Shown: piece after piece, positions 1 through 8,668 of the stretch
Layout of the letters: every line of letters starts with the position of its first letter
Position numbering within the stretch: the first letter of the stretch is position 1
IMG/VR virus record: IMGVR_UViG_2740892423_000019
Direction: 5' to 3' (one strand)
Length of the DNA: 8,668 nucleotides
From: a virus
Taxonomy: Duplodnaviria > Heunggongvirae > Uroviricota > Caudoviricetes
Position numbers and translations under genes: made by a program
Notes under the pieces: model-generated
Database searches by the model: none
What the model was told of the DNA's origin: nothing
Seen by the model: the letters and a program-made list of their open reading frames with translations, nothing else

Positions 1-1592
<1,592 letters not shown>

Positions 1593-1658: not shown

Positions 1659-2258
1659 ATGCGTAAACTTTATGCCGCCATTTTGTCCGCAGCCATCTGT
1701 CTGGCCGTATCCGGTGCGCCTGCATGGGCGTCTGAACATCAGTCCACGCTGAGCGCGGGCTATCTTCATGCCTCGACGAACGTTCCCGGCAGCGATGATC
1801 TTAACGGGATTAACGTGAAATACCGTTATGAGTTTACGGACACACTGGGGCTGGTGACGTCATTCAGCTATGCAGGAGACAAGAATCGCCAGCTGACCCG
1901 TTACAGCGATACCCGCTGGCATGAAGACTCCGTTCGTAACCGCTGGTTCAGCGTGATGGCGGGGCCGTCTGTACGCGTGAATGAATGGTTCAGCGCGTAT
2001 GCGATGGCGGGTGTGGCTTACAGCCGTGTGTCGACTTTCTCCGGGGATTATCTCCGCGTAACTGACAACAAGGGGAAAACGCACGATGTGCTGACCGGAA
2101 GTGATGACGCTCGCCACAGTAACACGTCTCTGGCGTGGGGAGCTGGCGTGCAGTTTAACCCGACCGAATCGGTGGCCATTGATATTGCTTATGAAGGCTC
2201 CGGCAGTGGTGACTGGCGCACTGACGGTTTCATCATGGGTGTCGGTTATAAATTCTGA
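1659..2258 (+). CDS. lom: Lom outer-membrane protein (Ail/Lom/PagC/OmpX family), lysogenic-conversion gene
   Basis: The 199-aa ORF has a Shine-Dalgarno-like gagagg 7 nt upstream of the ATG and an N-terminal signal peptide (MRKLYAAILSAAICLAVSGAPAWA). The C-terminal motifs INVKYRYE, SVMAGP, AYAMAGVA and IAYEGSGSGDWRTDGFIMGVGYKF match lambda Lom as I recall it. Its position directly after J matches lambda. Confidence 0.92.
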   Translation: MRKLYAAILSAAICLAVSGAPAWASEHQSTLSAGYLHASTNVPGSDDLNGINVKYRYEFTDTLGLVTSFSYAGDKNRQLTRYSDTRWHEDSVRNRWFSVMAGPSVRVNEWFSAYAMAGVAYSRVSTFSGDYLRVTDNKGKTHDVLTGSDDARHSNTSLAWGAGVQFNPTESVAIDIAYEGSGSGDWRTDGFIMGVGYKF

Positions 2259-2311: not shown

Positions 2312-2322
2312 GTGGGGTGAAT

Positions 2323-5300
2323 ATGGCAGTAAAGATTTCAGGTGTACTGAAAGACGGTGCAGGTAAACCGGTACAGAACTGCACAATCCAGCTGAAAGCA
2401 AAACGTAACAGCACCACGGTGGTGGTGAACACGGTGGCATCTGAAAATCCGGATGAAGCCGGGCGTTACAGCATGGATGTTGAGTACGGTCAGTACAGCG
2501 TTATTCTGTTGGTGGAAGGCTTCCCGCCATCGCATGCCGGGACCATCACCGTGTATGAAGACTCACAACCGGGTACGCTGAATGATTTTCTCGGTGCCAT
2601 GACGGAGGATGATGCCCGTCCGGAGGCACTGCGCCGCTTTGAACTGATGGTGGAAGAGGTGGCGCGTAACGCGTCCGCAGTGGCACAGAACACGGCAGCC
2701 GCGAAGAAGTCAGCCAGCGATGCCAGCACATCAGCCCGTGAGGCGGCAACCCATGCGACTGATGCTACAGGCTCAGCACGTGCAGCCAGCACATCAGCCG
2801 GGCAGGCCGCGACGTCGGCTCAGTCAGCGTCTTCCAGCGCAGGAACGGCATCAACAAAGGCTACTGAAGCATCAAAAAGTGCTGCCGCTGCAGAGTCCTC
2901 AAAAAGCGCGGCAGCCACCAGTGCCGGTGCGGCGAAAACGTCAGAAACGAATGCCGCAGCATCACAACAATCAGCAGCCACTTCTGCATCCACCGCGACC
3001 ACGAAAGCGTCAGAAGCTGCCACCTCAGCCCGGGATGCGGCGGCCTCAAAAGAGGCAGCGAAATCATCAGAAACGAACGCATCATCAAGTGCCAGTAGTG
3101 CAGCTTCCTCGGCAACGGCGGCAGGAAATTCCGCGAAGGCCGCAAAAACGTCTGAGACGAATGCGGATAACAGCGCACAGGCGGCAGCAGACTCACAAAC
3201 TGCATCGGCAAACTCCGCGACAGCAGCCAAAAAATCAGAAACCAACGCGAAAAATAGCGAGGCAGCAGCAAAGAGCAGCGAAACCAACGCTAAAGCCAGC
3301 GAAACTAATGCTAAATCCAGTGAAACAAACGCGGCGAAATCTGCGGCGGACGCACTTAATTATCGCAACCAGGCGCAAGTAATTGTTGGCGATAATATCG
3401 GTCTTGGTGAAGTTGCCATGACCTGCACTGATATCTCTGTTGAGCCATCAGGTTATATTGGATTTGTCAGGATTTACATCTCAGCGAAAGGTTATCCATC
3501 AGTAGCGTCTAGTGCCGGTGATAATCTTATTTCTGGTTATATAGTTAGATCAGAAGTGTCAACAAAAAGATATTCCGGTCTATTTGTTGGTTCAGATACA
3601 AAATCATTGTATTCGTACATTTACAGCCAAAGTTCTGGCCCGCAATGGATACGTCATACCCGCAGAGATGAATTAAGCCGCTTTGGTCAAAATGAATCAA
3701 CAACTCGTATGTATGGTCCAACTGGTGATCGTTTCTTTGAAATCCATACTAACGGGAGTTGGGGAGTTTATGATTCTTCTTCTGGACAATGGTCTCCGTT
3801 AGGTTTAGCCCAGGGCGGTACTGGTGGAAGAACTATCGAGCAAGCACGTGCGAACTTGCGGGTAATGTATGAGCAAAAAGCTGGCCTTGCTAATACTGAC
3901 CTAAACACCCTTACCGGTGAATATTCTGGTTTCTATCAACAACCAACGAGCGCTTACGCAACAGAAGAATTAAATTACCCAATCGGTCTGGCGGGCGCTT
4001 TAATAGTGCTCCAAACGAGAGCCAACACTGCTTCTTCCTGCGTTCAGGTGTACTACCCTTATAATAATCCGGGAATTACTTATAGACGAATATATGAAGG
4101 AGGAAGCGGTACCTGGTCTGAATGGAAGAGAGATGTATCAACAGAAAGGGTTGAAGAGGGAAAAGAAACAACTTACGTATATTCTACGTATTCTTCAGGC
4201 GCACCACGCTTACAGGTTTCCAAATCTGGTTTGTGGGGTTGTCATAATGGCACTGGCTGGTTGCCATTAGCTGTTGGGCAAGGAGGTACAGGTGCGACAA
4301 CAGTAGAAGATGCGCGAAACAACTTAAGTCTTGGCGAAAGTAGCGCAGTTAAATTTAAAAACCTTACTTTAACCGAAGCGCTCGACACGACATTAGGACT
4401 GCTTACAAAAACAGGACGAGACTGGAACACGCAGCATACTGATAACATTAATAAATTTATACCAATTGCAGGCAGTACAAACGGCCCGGCAGGTTCTATG
4501 GTTCTTGGCGGCATTCATGTTCAATTTAGTAAAAATTATGCTGTGCAGTTCGGAGGCCGCAATTCCGGTTTTTGGGGAAGAACAATTGAAAATGGAACGA
4601 CGCAGGAATGGAAGAAATTACTAACAGTAGACGATCTCAATTCATCTACCGATCTTGCTGTCAGGTCATTAACCACATCTAACCCGGTAAAATCTGGCGG
4701 AGGGCGAATTGATGTCCTTGGAAGCACGTCAGACTATAGCAAAATGGATTGCTTTGTACGTGGGTTTGATAGCACCGGTAATTCTCTCGCGTGGGCGTTG
4801 GGTTCATCAGTCGGCGTAAGTAAGATGCTGTCGCTAAAAAATTTCTTTAGCGGAGCTGAGATACTGTTAAATGGTAATGACGGCGCGGTTCAACTCAAAA
4901 CAGGTGCTGTTAACGGGGCTAAAGCACAGGCGCTCACTATCAACAAGGATGAGGTTAACTCAACTGTTGATTTAACTCTTACAAAACAAACAGGGACTGG
5001 AAATCGTTTTGTTTTACAGAACTTAGGTAATACAGAACTATCATTTGCCGCAAAAGTATGGGGATCAAGTGATCGACAAAACGTTTTTGAGGTTGGAACG
5101 TCTGCTGCGTATCTGTTTTATGCGCAAAAAACATCAGCAGGCCAGTTGTTTGATGTAAATGGCGCTATTAATTGCACAACGCTGAATCAGTCATCAGACC
5201 GCGACCTTAAAGACGATATTCGCGTTATCAGCGACGCTACGAAAGCAATCCGTAAAATGAACGGGTACACCTACACGCTCAAGGAAAACGGAATGCCTTA

Positions 5301-5628
5301 TGCTGGCGTTATTGCACAGGAAGTAATGGAGGCGATACCTGAAGCTGTGGGATCGTTTACTCATTATGGTGAAGAGTTGCAAGGTCCGACCGTTGACGGC
5401 AACGAGCTACGCGAAGAAACTCGCTATCTTAATGTTGACTACTCCGCCGTGACGGGGTTACTTGTTCAGGTCGCCCGTGAAACAGATGATCGCGTTACCG
5501 CGCTGGAAGAGGAAAATACAACGTTACGTGAAAATCTGGCAACAGCAGGCACCCGGATCACCACTCTGGAAAATCAGGTAAGCGAACTGGTTGCACTTGT
5601 CGGGCAGTTAACAGGAAGCGAACATTGA
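2323..5628 (+). CDS. stf: Side tail fibre protein, mosaic: lambda Stf-like N-terminus, Ala/Ser/Thr-rich shaft, divergent distal region, C-terminal self-cleaving chaperone domain
   Basis: Translation from ATG 2323 begins MAVKISGVLKDGAGKPVQNCTIQLKAKRNSTTVVVNT, which matches the lambda Stf N-terminus as recalled. The ORF track starts at the in-frame GTG 2317, which I regard as an artefact. A GGGG Shine-Dalgarno-like run sits at 2314-2317. The protein has a long low-complexity Ala/Ser/Thr shaft with repeated K(T/S)SETNA units, and two GGTG-x-ARxNL motifs (LGLAQGGTGGRTIEQARANLRV and LPLAVGQGGTGATTVEDARNNLSLG) typical of the phage tail fibre repeat. The gene ends at TGA 5626-5628. Confidence 0.88.
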   Translation: MAVKISGVLKDGAGKPVQNCTIQLKAKRNSTTVVVNTVASENPDEAGRYSMDVEYGQYSVILLVEGFPPSHAGTITVYEDSQPGTLNDFLGAMTEDDARPEALRRFELMVEEVARNASAVAQNTAAAKKSASDASTSAREAATHATDATGSARAASTSAGQAATSAQSASSSAGTASTKATEASKSAAAAESSKSAAATSAGAAKTSETNAAASQQSAATSASTATTKASEAATSARDAAASKEAAKSSETNASSSASSAASSATAAGNSAKAAKTSETNADNSAQAAADSQTASANSATAAKKSETNAKNSEAAAKSSETNAKASETNAKSSETNAAKSAADALNYRNQAQVIVGDNIGLGEVAMTCTDISVEPSGYIGFVRIYISAKGYPSVASSAGDNLISGYIVRSEVSTKRYSGLFVGSDTKSLYSYIYSQSSGPQWIRHTRRDELSRFGQNESTTRMYGPTGDRFFEIHTNGSWGVYDSSSGQWSPLGLAQGGTGGRTIEQARANLRVMYEQKAGLANTDLNTLTGEYSGFYQQPTSAYATEELNYPIGLAGALIVLQTRANTASSCVQVYYPYNNPGITYRRIYEGGSGTWSEWKRDVSTERVEEGKETTYVYSTYSSGAPRLQVSKSGLWGCHNGTGWLPLAVGQGGTGATTVEDARNNLSLGESSAVKFKNLTLTEALDTTLGLLTKTGRDWNTQHTDNINKFIPIAGSTNGPAGSMVLGGIHVQFSKNYAVQFGGRNSGFWGRTIENGTTQEWKKLLTVDDLNSSTDLAVRSLTTSNPVKSGGGRIDVLGSTSDYSKMDCFVRGFDSTGNSLAWALGSSVGVSKMLSLKNFFSGAEILLNGNDGAVQLKTGAVNGAKAQALTINKDEVNSTVDLTLTKQTGTGNRFVLQNLGNTELSFAAKVWGSSDRQNVFEVGTSAAYLFYAQKTSAGQLFDVNGAINCTTLNQSSDRDLKDDIRVISDATKAIRKMNGYTYTLKENGMPYAGVIAQEVMEAIPEAVGSFTHYGEELQGPTVDGNELREETRYLNVDYSAVTGLLVQVARETDDRVTALEEENTTLRENLATAGTRITTLENQVSELVALVGQLTGSEH
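5194..5625 (+). other. C-terminal self-cleaving chaperone domain of Stf (Peptidase S74 / endosialidase-chaperone-like)
   Basis: The motif SSDRDLKDDIRVI has the Ser-Asp-x-x-x-Lys signature of autoproteolytic tail-fibre chaperone domains (phage K1F endosialidase, T5 L-shaped fibre). It is followed by IRKMNGYTYTLKENG and a heptad-like tail, TALEEENTTLRENLATAGTRITTLENQVSELVALVGQL. Predicted cleavage is after the Ser encoded at 5194-5196. The assignment is by motif recall and was not searched. Confidence 0.65.
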
Positions 5629-5679
5629 TATCCTTCAAGCCCTGAAGGAGGCTGTTCCTGGTACGTTCAGACTGTTGTT

Positions 5680-5811
5680 GAGCTGGAAATCGCAACGGAG
5701 GAAGAAACCTTGTTGCTGGAAGTCTGGAAGAAGTATCGGGTGTTGCTGAACCGTGTTGATACATCAACTGCACCTGATATTGAGTGGCCTACGAACCCTG
5801 TCAGGGAGTAA
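5680..5811 (+). pseudogene. tfa: 3' remnant of tail fibre assembly gene tfa (last ~43 codons, no start codon)
   Basis: The segment translates to [43 protein letters not shown], which closely matches the lambda Tfa C-terminus (recalled as ...[37 protein letters not shown]...). It lies in the same frame as stf, directly after the stf TGA, with no ATG, GTG or TTG start and no N-terminal Tfa sequence. Confidence 0.7.
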
Positions 5812-5825
5812 TCATTGGGATTATG

Positions 5826-5858
5826 CCGCAGCACGTCTTAAGCAAGAGCGAGCTGCGG
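5826..5858. repeat. 33-nt palindromic element, copy A (hairpin between the convergent tfa remnant and methyltransferase 3' ends)
   Basis: The sequence is ccgcagcacgtcttaagcaagagcgagctgcgg. An imperfect stem (ccgcagc...gctgcgg) lies 8 nt downstream of the - strand methyltransferase stop codon (5866-5868). It is 33/37 identical, including the flanking ttgg, to copy B at 8526-8558. Confidence 0.5.
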
Positions 5859-5865
5859 TTGGATG

Positions 5866-6534
5866 CTATTTTTTCCCTGAAGCGGAAAACATTACTACAG
5901 TACCTTGAACCTTGGTTTTAACATTCTCGAAATGCTCTGAGAGTATATGTGTTAAGCCTTCTTCGGAATCTTTTGTGTTTGAAAAGATGCCTTTCTGATT
6001 GTAAATGCGCATCAGTTTTTGACCGAAGCTATTGTGCACAACTCCATCGCCAAGAATTGTGGCTCCGTATAGAGTTCCATCGTCAGTTAAGGCCTGCGCC
6101 GCATTGCGTATTACACAGCTTTTTGTAGATATATTTCCAGGCAGGCAGTGAAGAAGGTAAAACATGGAAATGGAATCAAATTGACCATGTAACGCCGCGG
6201 GATAAGGTTCAAAAACATCATGGCTAATTTTATGTTTAATTTTTGATTCCCCAGCCCTTGTAGATGCCGCGTTCAGGCTAGCTTCGTTCAAATCCATTAA
6301 AGATATCAGACTACTCTCAGGTACGTGAGTAAGGTAAAACCCAGTTCCAACACCAATATCCAGATGGTTGTTACCTAAATGTTCCAGAAAGTGTGGAAGA
6401 AGGTGTTCCTTTGTAGGACATCCCCATGCAAGCCGATTTGATACTCCCAAAACCCACCAGTCATAAAGCTTTAGGGTAAGTGGTGTGTAAATTTTAGCCC
6501 CATCATCTGTGTTTTTTTTCATTAATTTCACCAT
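5866..6534 (-). CDS. Class I (Rossmann-fold) SAM-dependent methyltransferase, substrate unknown
   Basis: The 222-aa ORF carries a canonical motif I, HLDIGVGTGFY (hh-D/E-h-G-x-G-x-G), and a downstream acidic motif-II-like LISLMDLNE. GC is around 40%, lower than the phage structural genes. The start is uncertain: ATG at 6534 (MVKLMKK) or ATG at 6522 (MKKNTDD, weak ggtga Shine-Dalgarno-like sequence 6 nt upstream). Confidence 0.72.
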   Translation of the reverse strand: MVKLMKKNTDDGAKIYTPLTLKLYDWWVLGVSNRLAWGCPTKEHLLPHFLEHLGNNHLDIGVGTGFYLTHVPESSLISLMDLNEASLNAASTRAGESKIKHKISHDVFEPYPAALHGQFDSISMFYLLHCLPGNISTKSCVIRNAAQALTDDGTLYGATILGDGVVHNSFGQKLMRIYNQKGIFSNTKDSEEGLTHILSEHFENVKTKVQGTVVMFSASGKK

Positions 6535-6590
6535 GTTATAGTTTTGTTTGTGAATTAAATCAATTATGGTGATGAATTACAAGGGGTTAA

Positions 6591-6860
6591 ATGCTGCCGC
6601 AGCATAGCGATATTGAAATAGCCTGGTATGCTTCGATACAGCAGGAGCCGAATGGCTGGAAGACCGTCACCACATAGTTCTACATCCAGGAATTCAGTGA
6701 GCATATTGCGCCACTTCAGGATGCTGTAGATCTGGAGATCGCAACGGAGGAAGAAAACTCGTTGCTGGAAGCCTGGAAGAAGTATCGGGTGTTGCTGAAC
6801 CGTGTTAATACAACAACTGCACCGGATATTGAATGGCCAACAGGACCCATTATCGAATAG
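6591..6860 (+). pseudogene. Small ORF with a Tfa C-terminal-like domain, interrupted by an in-frame amber codon (TAG 6675-6677)
   Basis: ATG 6591 is preceded by aagggg (Shine-Dalgarno-like). It encodes MLPQHSDIEIAWYASIQQEPNGWKTVTT, then TAG, then in the same frame [60 protein letters not shown]. The second part matches the lambda Tfa C-terminus ([20 protein letters not shown]...[22 protein letters not shown]). No start codon exists after the amber codon. It resembles the small Tfa-C-like proteins of E. coli cryptic prophages (ynaE/ydfK family), from memory and unverified. Confidence 0.5.
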
Positions 6861-6871
6861 TGCATTACGAA

Positions 6872-6904
6872 CTGCAGGATATTATATGGGATAATATTCT
6901 GCAG
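6872..6904. terminator. AT-rich inverted repeat between convergent genes (possible bidirectional terminator)
   Basis: Arms of 14 nt, ctgcaggatattat and ataatattctgcag, carry one mismatch and flank a 5-nt spacer (atggg). The + strand continues with tttatt. The repeat sits between the small ORF stop (6860) and the cyclase stop (6934). Confidence 0.3.
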
Positions 6905-6933
6905 TTTATTGGGGCTGTATTTTAAAAAGGTGT

Positions 6934-8265
6934 TTATTTTGAGTGAGTTATCACCTTGTTTTTTCCGGTTCTTTTGGCTTGATATAACGCTTTATCGGCA
7001 TTGACTAACATTTCAGATGGACTGAGATTATTCTCTTTTGAAGTAAAGCAACCAATACTGACAGTTATTTTCTCAGGTCCATGCGATAATAATTTTTCCG
7101 AGCATTGCTCTTCAATGTTTTTTCTGATTCGCTCTGCAATTGATAGCAAGAGCTTTTGAGTATTACCTTTAATGATAATACCGAACTCCTCACCGCCTAA
7201 GCGCCCTAATATATCCTCTTTCCTGATGGATTTTTTTATTATTCTGGTAACCATTACTATGACTTGATCACCCATATGATGCCCCCATTTGTCATTGATG
7301 CTTTTGAAATTGTCAATATCTAACATTATTACTGAGAAATCATGGTGTTTTGATATATTCTTCAATGAGTCAATAAAGTATCTTCTATTGTATGTATTCG
7401 TTAGTGGATCATGAATTGCCATATGATTAGCATGATTTAATTTCCTGAAAACATAATACATGAGTGTTGAAATGATATAAATCATTGATATCAATTCAAG
7501 AAATTTTGTCATGTACCATGCAGGATGGGATTTATCAATAAAATACAATAAAATTAGATTATTGCATACTGACACTATACTAATAAGTATTATACACAAC
7601 CATATTTTTGAGTAATTACGTATGCTGATGCATGAGCTGATAAGTAATACAAGCCAAAATACTGATATTATTTTGGTGTACACGATATTCCACGTCGACA
7701 AATGACGATTCAGCGAGTATTGTATAATATTAAGACTATATTTTATATTGTCACTGCTTAGATTTTTTGCTACAAACGGAGTAATAAAAAGAATTAATAT
7801 TGACAAAACAACAATTATTATGTTTCTTTTATCTTCTAAAACACTTTTATTTTTAACATTGGTGGAATAAACAGCCAGAAAGATTATAGATATAAAGCTG
7901 AACTGACGGAATAGATAATATATTGCGATATCATTTGATTTCTGATAGATTGTAGATAAATCGTTACCTAACGGAGATAAAGAAATAATAGCCACTTCTA
8001 ATAAATAATACGTGTTGCTCAAAAACGCGAATGAAAGAATTAAGAGATAACTTTGTCTCTGATTAGAAACATAGTAAAGCAATAGAAAAATAAAAATCAT
8101 CAGGTTTATGAAAAAAAGCCCAATAATGAAAACACTATAACTTATTTGTGTTGTTTGTGTTATGTATATTCCATTATTTTCATGCAGTAACAAAAATATA
8201 ATAGAGATGCATGAAAATAAAAAGATGAAGATTTTTATTTTTATAGGTACCTGCTTGATAATCAT
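6934..8265 (-). CDS. Membrane-anchored diguanylate cyclase: N-terminal polytopic membrane domain (MASE-like) plus C-terminal GGDEF domain with GGEEF active site and RxxD I-site
   Basis: The 443-aa ORF has ATG at 8265-8263 with aggtg 5 nt upstream on the - strand. The first ~270 residues are highly hydrophobic, with about 8 predicted transmembrane segments rich in I, L and F. The GGDEF domain motifs are all present: HDPLTNTYNRRYF, MLDIDNFKSINDKWGHHMGDQV, the I-site RKED (7213-7224), and RLGGEEFG with GGEEF at 7183-7197. GC is about 25-30% by hand count on sampled 60-nt lines. The architecture resembles E. coli YcdT/DgcT-type cyclases and possibly the prophage-associated DgcX reported in some pathogenic E. 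coli; both comparisons are from memory. Confidence 0.9.
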   Translation of the reverse strand: MIIKQVPIKIKIFIFLFSCISIIFLLLHENNGIYITQTTQISYSVFIIGLFFINLMIFIFLLLYYVSNQRQSYLLILSFAFLSNTYYLLEVAIISLSPLGNDLSTIYQKSNDIAIYYLFRQFSFISIIFLAVYSTNVKNKSVLEDKRNIIIVVLSILILFITPFVAKNLSSDNIKYSLNIIQYSLNRHLSTWNIVYTKIISVFWLVLLISSCISIRNYSKIWLCIILISIVSVCNNLILLYFIDKSHPAWYMTKFLELISMIYIISTLMYYVFRKLNHANHMAIHDPLTNTYNRRYFIDSLKNISKHHDFSVIMLDIDNFKSINDKWGHHMGDQVIVMVTRIIKKSIRKEDILGRLGGEEFGIIIKGNTQKLLLSIAERIRKNIEEQCSEKLLSHGPEKITVSIGCFTSKENNLSPSEMLVNADKALYQAKRTGKNKVITHSK

Positions 8266-8337: not shown

Positions 8338-8366
8338 ATACTATTATTCTGGTTAATCGCTGTCAA
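8338..8366 (-). promoter_or_regulatory. Candidate sigma70 promoter for the diguanylate cyclase
   Basis: On the - strand there is a perfect -35 TTGACA (plus-strand tgtcaa, 8361-8366), a 17-nt spacer, and a -10-like TAGTAT (plus-strand atacta, 8338-8343), about 70 nt upstream of the ATG. This is a hand prediction in an AT-rich region where chance matches are common. Confidence 0.25.
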
Positions 8367-8525: not shown

Positions 8526-8558
8526 CCGCAGCACGTCGTATGCAAGAACGTGCTGCGG
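8526..8558 (-). terminator. 33-nt palindromic element, copy B; on the - strand a hairpin followed by a T-rich tract (terminator candidate for a gene entering from the right edge)
   Basis: The sequence is ccgcagcacgtcgtatgcaagaacgtgctgcgg, with a perfect 11-bp stem (ccgcagcacgt / acgtgctgcgg) and an 11-nt loop. On the - strand the stem is followed by ttttctttatg. Reverse-strand frames at 8587-8668 remain open to the window edge, consistent with the 3' end of a - strand gene. Confidence 0.4.
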
Positions 8559-8668
8559 TTGGCTGGTGAACTTTCTGGATTTGCCCCTATATTTCCAGAC
8601 ATCTGTTATCACTTAACCCATTACAAGCCCGCTGCCGCAGATATTCCCGTGGCGAGCGATAACCCAGC

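Follow-up and report, generated by a model that had tools for sequence, protein, structure and literature searches.

An intact prophage-borne allele of ybcY encodes a predicted class I methyltransferase that probably acts on a small molecule

The window analysed here, a stretch of 8,668 nt from the IMG/VR virus record IMGVR_UViG_2740892423_000019 (Caudoviricetes), carries on its minus strand the gene ybcY, which encodes a predicted S-adenosylmethionine (SAM)-dependent methyltransferase and is flanked by two remnants of tfa (Table 1). The gene is an uninterrupted open reading frame (ORF) of 222 codons plus stop, exactly as delimited in a first-pass annotation, which gave no strand, and its product is identical to the RefSeq protein WP_000239881.1 and matches PHROG 2132 end to end (E = 7.9e-157). 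It is thus already known and annotated, being ybcY in its intact form, a member of PHROG 2132 and an ordinary prophage passenger. In Escherichia coli MG1655 and a K-12-type laboratory strain, the locus lies in the tfaD-tfaX interval of the cryptic prophage DLP12 and is annotated as the pseudogene ybcY (b0562; 4153-4807 of the MG1655 segment examined). The MG1655 sequence is identical to the window at 801 of 812 nt (~99%) over the gene, promoter and downstream hairpin, and the sole inactivating lesion of K-12, as compared at window positions 6515-6534, is a 2-nt deletion in ATG-A8, by which the M5 start codon is lost and the frame shifted. Given this identity and the confinement of the K-12 lesion to the 2-nt deletion, the window copy is, as read from the sequence, an intact allele of ybcY. 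The ATG-A8 tract is a slippage-prone run at the probable start codon of the gene.

Table 1. Features of ybcY and its surroundings in the 8,668-nt window
Feature	Position	Strand	Basis
J tail-tip gene, 3' part	30-1592	+	Pfam/ORF
lom	1659-2258	+	Pfam/ORF
Side-tail-fibre gene stf, ending in Peptidase_S74 chaperone domain	2317-5628	+	Pfam
First tfa remnant (3' end), downstream cassette flank, 135 nt	5677..5811	+	RefSeq partial tfa; same junction in E2865 and K-12 type
GC-rich hairpin between tfa stop and methyltransferase stop	5826..5865	both	Repeat D3; kept in E2865 and K-12
Class I SAM-dependent methyltransferase (predicted), annotated coding sequence	5866..6534	-	ORF, Pfam, PHROG 2132, RefSeq annotation in MB53, ybcY identity
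Probable true coding sequence, from second ATG (M5), 218 residues	5866..6522	-	GGTGA 5 nt upstream; start inferred
His129-Cys130 codons (LLHCLPG, just after β4)	6145..6150	-	Alignment A3; hidden Markov model (HMM) alignments
Motif I LDIGVGTG, SAM-binding glycine loop, residues 58-65	6340..6363	-	Sequence motif; alignment A1
Sigma-70 promoter of ybcY, TTGATT-17-TATAAC	6535..6563	-	Single exact match in window; 0.01 expected by chance
Divergent promoter-like site ATGGTG-15-TTAAAT, counterpart of tfaX promoter	6566..6592	+	2-nt difference from K-12 in alignment
Match to Rfam IS009 (RF02111), candidate small RNA	6614..6817	+	129.9 bits vs gathering cut-off of 117; model positions 1-199 of 199
Second tfa remnant (C-terminal part only), upstream cassette flank	6684..6860	+	RefSeq partial tfa in MB53; E2865/tfaX alignment
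MASE4-GGDEF diguanylate cyclase (dgcX)	6934-8265	-	Pfam
Strong promoter-like site TTGACA-17-TAGTAT (10/12), ~70 nt upstream of dgcX start	8338-8366	-	

Several observations place the start of translation at the second ATG of the annotated frame (nt 6522). The corresponding methionine, M5, is invariant and is the start residue of nearly all homologs in our family alignment (A1), the first matched position of the PHROG 2132 profile is residue 5 of the ORF, the -10 element of the promoter abuts the first ATG, and the K-12 lesion falls at the same ATG as M5. The likely product is therefore a protein of 218 residues, translated from a message that has a very short leader or that relies on GGTGA. 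In K-12, genomic SELEX (systematic evolution of ligands by exponential enrichment) assigned the constitutive RpoD promoter TTGATT-17-TATAAC to ybcY, and the same spacer is bound by H-NS and contains a tfaX promoter in divergent orientation, ATGGCA-15-TTAAAT (PMC3946193). We found 2,296 homologs in a collection of 5.8 billion proteins and 1,742 cluster representatives at E ≤1e-3 in a profile search of 1.84 billion, and the window copy combines the full-length match to PHROG 2132 with the tfa-ybcY-tfa' synteny of E. coli ybcY orthologs. The ratio of nonsynonymous to synonymous substitution rates (dN/dS) is ~0.10 against the orthologs from Citrobacter, Klebsiella and Proteus, indicating that ybcY is, by this measure, a functional protein-coding gene under strong purifying selection. 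A second ORF, of 45 codons (5784-5921, plus strand), covers the tfa stop, the hairpin and, in antisense, the 3' end of the methyltransferase gene; it is labelled 'hypothetical protein' or 'nucleocapsid protein' in some RefSeq genomes (E2865, JCL301) and is most likely an annotation artefact.

The gene is part of a unit that recurs in different prophages. In an alignment of the window with E2865, whose tfa is complete, and with the K-12 type, all three sequences share two junctions and diverge only after the second tfa remnant, where they continue with dgcX, with an alpha/beta hydrolase gene and ompT, or with appY. These shared junctions delimit a conserved cassette, situated in lambdoid prophages where the late region ends in the tail-fibre genes and consisting of a tfa 3' end, a hairpin, ybcY on the opposite strand, divergent promoters and a 5'-truncated tfa. 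Flanking ybcY is a direct repeat of 127 nt of the tfa 3' end (5666-5792 and 6715-6841; 89% identical), and such tfa homology arms suggest a route of recombination between lambdoid phages. An invertible tail-fibre segment was considered and rejected, since the tfa copies are direct rather than inverted and no invertase is present. The first-pass annotation had regarded the methyltransferase as phage cargo, which agrees with the upstream J, lom, stf and tfa remnants and with the occurrence of the gene in 15 of 50,697 phage records, including ev243, 2G7b, the PhiR series, Kati and Turner; the 14 full-length copies among them are 99-100% identical at the protein level. Furthermore, window positions 5600-6950 are 100% identical to E. 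coli MB53 (99.8-100% rightward of 5600), where the matching segment closes a complete lambdoid prophage beside ybhB-bioA, at the lambda attachment site. At ≥80% coverage, ybcY is found in 3,799 of 5,426 complete E. coli genomes (70%), in up to four copies each; the best copy is ≥99% identical to the intact allele in 3,288 of 3,837 records, and the cluster of 222-residue proteins has 6,589 member sequences. The cassette is AT-rich compared with the structural genes of the phage, with a GC content of 40.8% for ybcY against 53-55% for J and lom; that of dgcX is 29.6%. Overall, ybcY shows the features of a 'moron', namely orientation opposite to J-lom-stf, a published sigma-70 promoter of its own, atypical GC content and variable presence, and we infer that it is expressed in the lysogen, with transcription independent of the late operon.

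The enzymatic fold is predicted with consistency, and far beyond what chance would give, by sequence profiles and by modelling. The protein scores above the gathering cut-offs of four Pfam families, namely Methyltransf_12 (37.6 bits against a cut-off of 30; the strongest match, E = 3.8e-9), Methyltransf_23 (28.8 against 27), Methyltransf_25 (27.7 against 27) and Methyltransf_11 (24.6 against 21.2). An AlphaFold2 model built with 25 homologs (mean predicted local distance difference test score 89.1, predicted template modelling score 0.86) has seven beta-strands in class I order, including the seven-stranded sheet with the C-terminal antiparallel β6-β7 hairpin that is the hallmark of the class, and the whole of the 218 residues is accounted for by an N-terminal cap and a Rossmann core. 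The motif I that the first-pass annotation had pointed out is present, and the Pfam and structure searches it had proposed both returned the SAM-binding class I fold. Within this motif, Asp59, Gly61, Gly63, Thr64 and Gly65 are all invariant in A1, and Asp59, Gly61, Gly63 and Gly65 are counted invariant in both A1 and a broad family alignment, A3, with members down to ~35% identity. Asp81 (LMDLN) and Asp106 (HDVF) are invariant in A1; Asp81 is so in A3 as well, where Asp106 is not listed at ≥90%. Strands of the model are at 76-81 and 99-104, and by analogy Asp81 would bind the ribose hydroxyls of SAM and Asp106 the adenine N6, their counterparts in CysG being Asp77 and Asp102. With a maximum 19-residue hydropathy of 0.95 and an isoelectric point of 6.9, the ybcY product is best described as a predicted soluble class I (Rossmann-fold) SAM-dependent methyltransferase of ~218 residues.

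Beyond the SAM-binding motifs, Tyr24, Cys39, His57, His129, Asn186 and Asp189 are invariant in A3, and Cys130 is conserved at ≥90%. In HMM alignments, His129 (FYLLHC) is matched with His115 of JHAMT (FYTLHW), with the equivalent residue of a second JHAMT (FYCLHW) and with that of ToxA (FLFHY). JHAMT (PDB 7EC0/7EBS) is also the best single-sequence match in the PDB (E = 1.3e-3, improving to 2e-5 with the family profile), and its His115 forms a hydrogen bond to the substrate carboxyl and is catalytically essential (PMC8526772). In CysG/BelI (PDB 9FCD, 9FCE), a metal-binding His-His-Asp motif after β4 serves carboxyl O-methylation, with an Arg binding the C1 carboxyl. Many of the top structural neighbours of ybcY, including JHAMT, DhpI, BelI, tRNA cmo5U methyltransferase, Trm9, Tam and LahSB, were grouped as carboxyl/acid O-methyltransferases. 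The alignment of His129 with JHAMT His115, the position of the CysG/BelI motif and these neighbours lead us to lean, tentatively and at less than even odds, towards carboxylate O-methylation, that is, methyl-ester formation as in JHAMT or CysG/BelI, as the best single guess at the chemistry. Small-molecule O-, N- and C-methyltransferases dominate both the sequence and the structure matches, and a search of a viral structure library returned generic methyltransferases only. Bacterial and fungal members of the family are ~45% identical, which, together with the stand-alone occurrence of the gene in diverse neighbourhoods, points to a small metabolite or a xenobiotic as the acceptor.

Taken as a whole, the explanation that we favour, with a probability of about 0.7, is that the locus holds an intact ybcY, carried as cargo of a lambdoid cassette and encoding a small-molecule methyltransferase. 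In the proposed mechanism, SAM would be bound by a cytoplasmic enzyme through Asp59, Gly61, Gly63 and Gly65 as well as Asp81 and Asp106, and the acceptor would be a soluble metabolite or xenobiotic, small in size and of wide distribution, held under the aromatic N-terminal helical cap (Tyr24, Trp26/27/37) and positioned by His129, with Cys130, Asn186 and Asp189 nearby. On the carboxyl-ester reading, the outcome might be detoxification or metabolite editing to the benefit of the lysogen.

A number of points weigh against this explanation or its chemical part. K-12 tolerates the loss of ybcY, and the sole phenotype found is that Hha toxicity is unaffected in a ybcY mutant (PMC2408971). Similarity to characterised enzymes is limited to the SAM-binding core (12-21% identity), and ybcY has no demonstrable counterpart of the terpenoid pocket of JHAMT or of its Gln14/15 partner, which could not be placed because the HMM alignments begin at about residue 41. 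The clustering of His129, Cys130, Asn186 and Asp189 is itself suggested by class I topology. Furthermore, phosphoethanolamine methyltransferase and similar N-methyltransferases have their catalytic His at this post-β4 position too, so that the residue does not tell O- from N-methylation. Finally, clustering of the ORFs from 67 loci in ~27 genera or groups yielded no conserved neighbour family and hence no clue to a pathway.

The neighbourhoods were also inspected for specific partners. An operon partner was rejected, the recurrent neighbours at the 67 loci reflecting within-genus synteny only. A methyltransferase/esterase pair, suggested by the alpha/beta hydrolase in ev243 and E2865 and by a COesterase in Erwinia, was likewise rejected because homologs of the E. 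coli hydrolase are absent from the methyltransferase loci of the other genera. Domain fusions were uninformative as a hint to function, the longer relatives being methyltransferase-only save for an RCC1 fusion in a lichen fungus, and a search from a fungal member for named distant homologs gave generic names only.

Other readings of the gene differ mainly in the acceptor. The enzyme could be an N-methyltransferase acting on the amine head group of a lipid or a phospho-base, thereby altering the membrane or osmolyte chemistry of the lysogen: the top Foldseek match is a bacterial phosphatidylethanolamine N-methyltransferase of 207 residues (8YS9; E = 1.2e-11, TM-score 0.60-0.67), the same in size and fold as the ybcY product, the phosphoethanolamine methyltransferases of Plasmodium, plants and nematodes also rank high in the structure search, and the N-methyltransferases NodS and ToxA are among the best profile matches. 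Phosphoethanolamine methyltransferases have a Tyr/His dyad with the His after β4, and Tyr24 and His129 are both invariant in the ybcY family (A3). However, the list of structural matches is flat, so that the first rank of 8YS9 carries little weight; its identity to ybcY is 15-17%, with a profile E of 0.004, and the hydropathy profile of ybcY reveals no amphipathic or hydrophobic membrane-binding segment. The gene is, moreover, present in 70% of E. coli genomes although phosphatidylcholine synthesis is not known from this species, and we consider this reading unlikely. Methylation of a macromolecule other than DNA, be it a nucleotide side chain in tRNA or rRNA or a carboxyl group or lysine of a protein, with an effect on translation or on a host factor, appears distinctly improbable: tRNA enzymes do figure among the structural neighbours, but the model consists of core and cap with no RNA- or protein-binding extension, the charge is near neutral, small-molecule enzymes dominate the matches, and a patchy distribution on mobile elements and in fungi at ~45% identity is more readily reconciled with a common metabolite than with a macromolecule specific to one lineage.

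Orphan DNA methyltransferases are frequent in phages, and PADLOC gave a single weak match, to mad2 (E = 0.0033, 14 bits), so that anti-restriction or epigenetic cargo had to be considered too. Yet [DNS]PP[YFW] and PC[QH] motifs are present in none of the 356 family members fetched, the query included; the protein matches no DNA-methyltransferase Pfam family and has no target-recognition domain, its 218 residues being fully taken up by cap and core; no DNA methyltransferases are among the top structural matches; and no restriction-enzyme-like or specificity gene is nearby, the neighbours being tfa remnants, stf and dgcX. In view of the motifs, the Pfam matches, the structural neighbours and the gene context, a role in DNA methylation or restriction-modification was therefore rejected and seems to us scarcely credible, and the acceptor of the enzyme is almost certainly a small molecule, not DNA. 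That ybcY is one of the known anti-phage defence genes was rejected as well, the mad2 match being of only 14 bits. These results bear out the first-pass annotation, which had seen neither DNA-methyltransferase motifs nor an adjacent restriction enzyme and had preferred a small-molecule or protein/RNA methyltransferase over a part of a restriction-modification system; the match to a DNA methyltransferase family with a target-recognition domain that would have spoken for the opposite was looked for and not found. It is also very improbable that ybcY is a functionless hitch-hiker, a decaying remnant silenced by H-NS and kept between tfa fragments by linkage. The pseudogene of K-12, the H-NS binding at its promoter region, truncated variants such as the clusters of 161 and 130 residues and the lack of a known phenotype would all fit such a remnant, but dN/dS stays at ~0.10 over deep divergence, the catalytic motifs are all invariant, near-identical intact copies prevail among the E. 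coli records and in the large 222-residue cluster, and the family persists on plasmids and chromosomes of many genera.

Among the elements around the gene, the hairpin at 5826-5865 has folding z-scores of -4.7 on the minus and -3.8 on the plus strand. A U6 run lies 10 nt past it on the plus strand, there is no U-tract on the methyltransferase strand, and a consensus terminator scan called no canonical intrinsic terminator for ybcY. The hairpin is one of two 88% identical copies of a 40-nt repeat, one after the tfa stop and the other (8526-8565) upstream of the dgcX promoter-like site; followed on the minus strand by UUUUCUUUAU, the latter resembles a canonical terminator directed towards ybhB. 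The arrangement of the two copies hints that a tfa stop was separated from its hairpin by insertion of the dgcX block. The Rfam IS009 match falls on the tfaX-type tfa remnant and follows closely after the divergent promoter-like site, and the 'small RNA' may simply be the transcript of a tfa gene fragment. Upstream, stf contains a long low-complexity stretch rich in Ala, Ser and Thr, especially at 2600-3400, with imperfect 21-nt repeats at 3276-3332, and is ~300 nt shorter than the near-identical gene of MB53, the difference lying in the repetitive part. The Peptidase_S74 domain at the end of stf may explain the shrinkage of the next tfa to 135 nt.

On the other side of ybcY lies the cyclic di-GMP synthase that the first-pass annotation had noted as a neighbour. 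It fits DgcX, with an eight-helix membrane sensor and, five residues ahead of GGEEF, an RxxD I-site; DgcX always adjoins lambdoid prophage DNA at attB (PMC4287979, PMC10459773). We found dgcX in 767 complete E. coli genomes and adjacent to ybcY, as in the window, in only 190. Functional coupling of the two genes was rejected in view of these 190 adjacent pairs against totals of 3,799 and 767, the differing GC contents, the intervening tfa remnant and the existence of cyclase-free phages, for instance ev243, in which ybcY is accompanied by an alpha/beta hydrolase gene, ompT and an integrase. The two genes thus appear to be independent cargo stacked in one region, their linkage being incidental. 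The strong promoter-like site upstream of dgcX agrees with the very high expression reported for this gene by Richter et al. 2014. In MB53, dgcX and ybhB have between them the lambda att core GCTTTTTTATACTAA (23309-23323 of the segment examined), which, projected onto the window, corresponds to ~8908-8922, just past its end. This position of the att core places dgcX, in our reading, within the prophage as cargo on the phage side of attR; the paper on DgcX had proposed that dgcX is flanking host DNA, hitch-hiking by specialised transduction.

Relatives of ybcY are found on several unrelated elements. In Klebsiella, ~600 large plasmids carry a 65%-identical copy, often together with a second family member; on pRJF999, a virulence plasmid of the pLVPK/pK2044 type, the homolog (8995-9648 of the segment examined) is divergent from rmpA-rmpD-rmpC-peg-344 and lies beside iroBCDN, with the second member ~9 kb away. 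Comparative genomics has flagged the Klebsiella copy as a marker of liver abscess or hypermucoviscosity (PMC5126061, PMC9372168, PMC9846069). The Salmonella ortholog is chromosomal and corresponds, by its position upstream of cybB, to the published STM1638, described as a putative methyltransferase flanking rydC, and Erwinia amylovora has a family member on its 28-kb plasmid pEA29. A degenerate relative is present in the vap island of pVAPA1037 of Prescottella (Rhodococcus) equi (7001-7714 of the segment examined; hhalign probability 100%, E = 1.9e-40), divergent from the operon of the LysR-type regulator virR. It has lost motif I (GVGTG to GARSA), Asp81 (DLN to CLK) and Asp106 (HDV to GSV) while keeping the equivalents of Cys39, His57, His129, Asn186 and Asp189, and judging from these changes it is probably non-catalytic, a pseudo-enzyme or a ligand-binding derivative; the literature ascribes to it 'a potential regulatory role' and nothing further. 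In the literature, we found no function assigned by experiment to ybcY, to STM1638, to the copy in Klebsiella or to R. equi pVAPA_0470. A bolder proposal, which we regard as quite unlikely, is that the family is a mobile host-adaptation enzyme whose unusual His-Cys...Asp constellation might form an active site, perhaps metal-assisted, for the methyl-esterification or some other methylation of one specific small molecule of the host or environment. If true, this would explain why intact copies lie beside virulence or fitness regulators on elements as unrelated as lambdoid prophages, rmpADC plasmids and pEA29, with a derivative beside virR.

Even as ordinary cargo, ybcY represents an enzyme family that is under strong purifying selection and occurs in 70% of complete E. 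coli genomes, and its rmpA-adjacent relative on Klebsiella plasmids, those of hypervirulent strains included, has repeatedly been flagged as a marker. The 2-nt lesion of K-12 is a natural knockout that, once repaired, provides a ready isogenic pair. The substrate, once found, would explain a very common function of lysogenic conversion and would reveal whether the marker gene of Klebsiella itself contributes to virulence or is no more than a neighbour of virulence genes.

Among known systems, JHAMT shares with ybcY the class I fold and the post-β4 His, whereas identity is ~21%, is confined to the SAM-binding core and connects unrelated organisms and biology. CysG/BelI resemble ybcY in having a His at the post-β4 position, but their second His is replaced by Cys130, the invariant Asp189 and near-invariant Lys22 of ybcY are candidate equivalents only, and ybcY is not surrounded by a biosynthetic gene cluster. 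Closer is the Klebsiella protein WP_011251259.1 (BAH65943.1, beside rmpA on pK2044), which is 65% identical over 215 residues, keeps all motifs and is likewise mobile-element cargo, although it is borne by a plasmid rather than a prophage, is divergent from rmpADC and has no tfa flanks annotated adjacent to it. The closest counterpart is ybcY of K-12, which has the same flanks (the tfaD 3' end downstream and the tfaX remnant upstream) and the same promoter, but is located at the DLP12 site rather than in an att-lambda prophage, its cassette being followed by appY-ompT where the window continues with dgcX.

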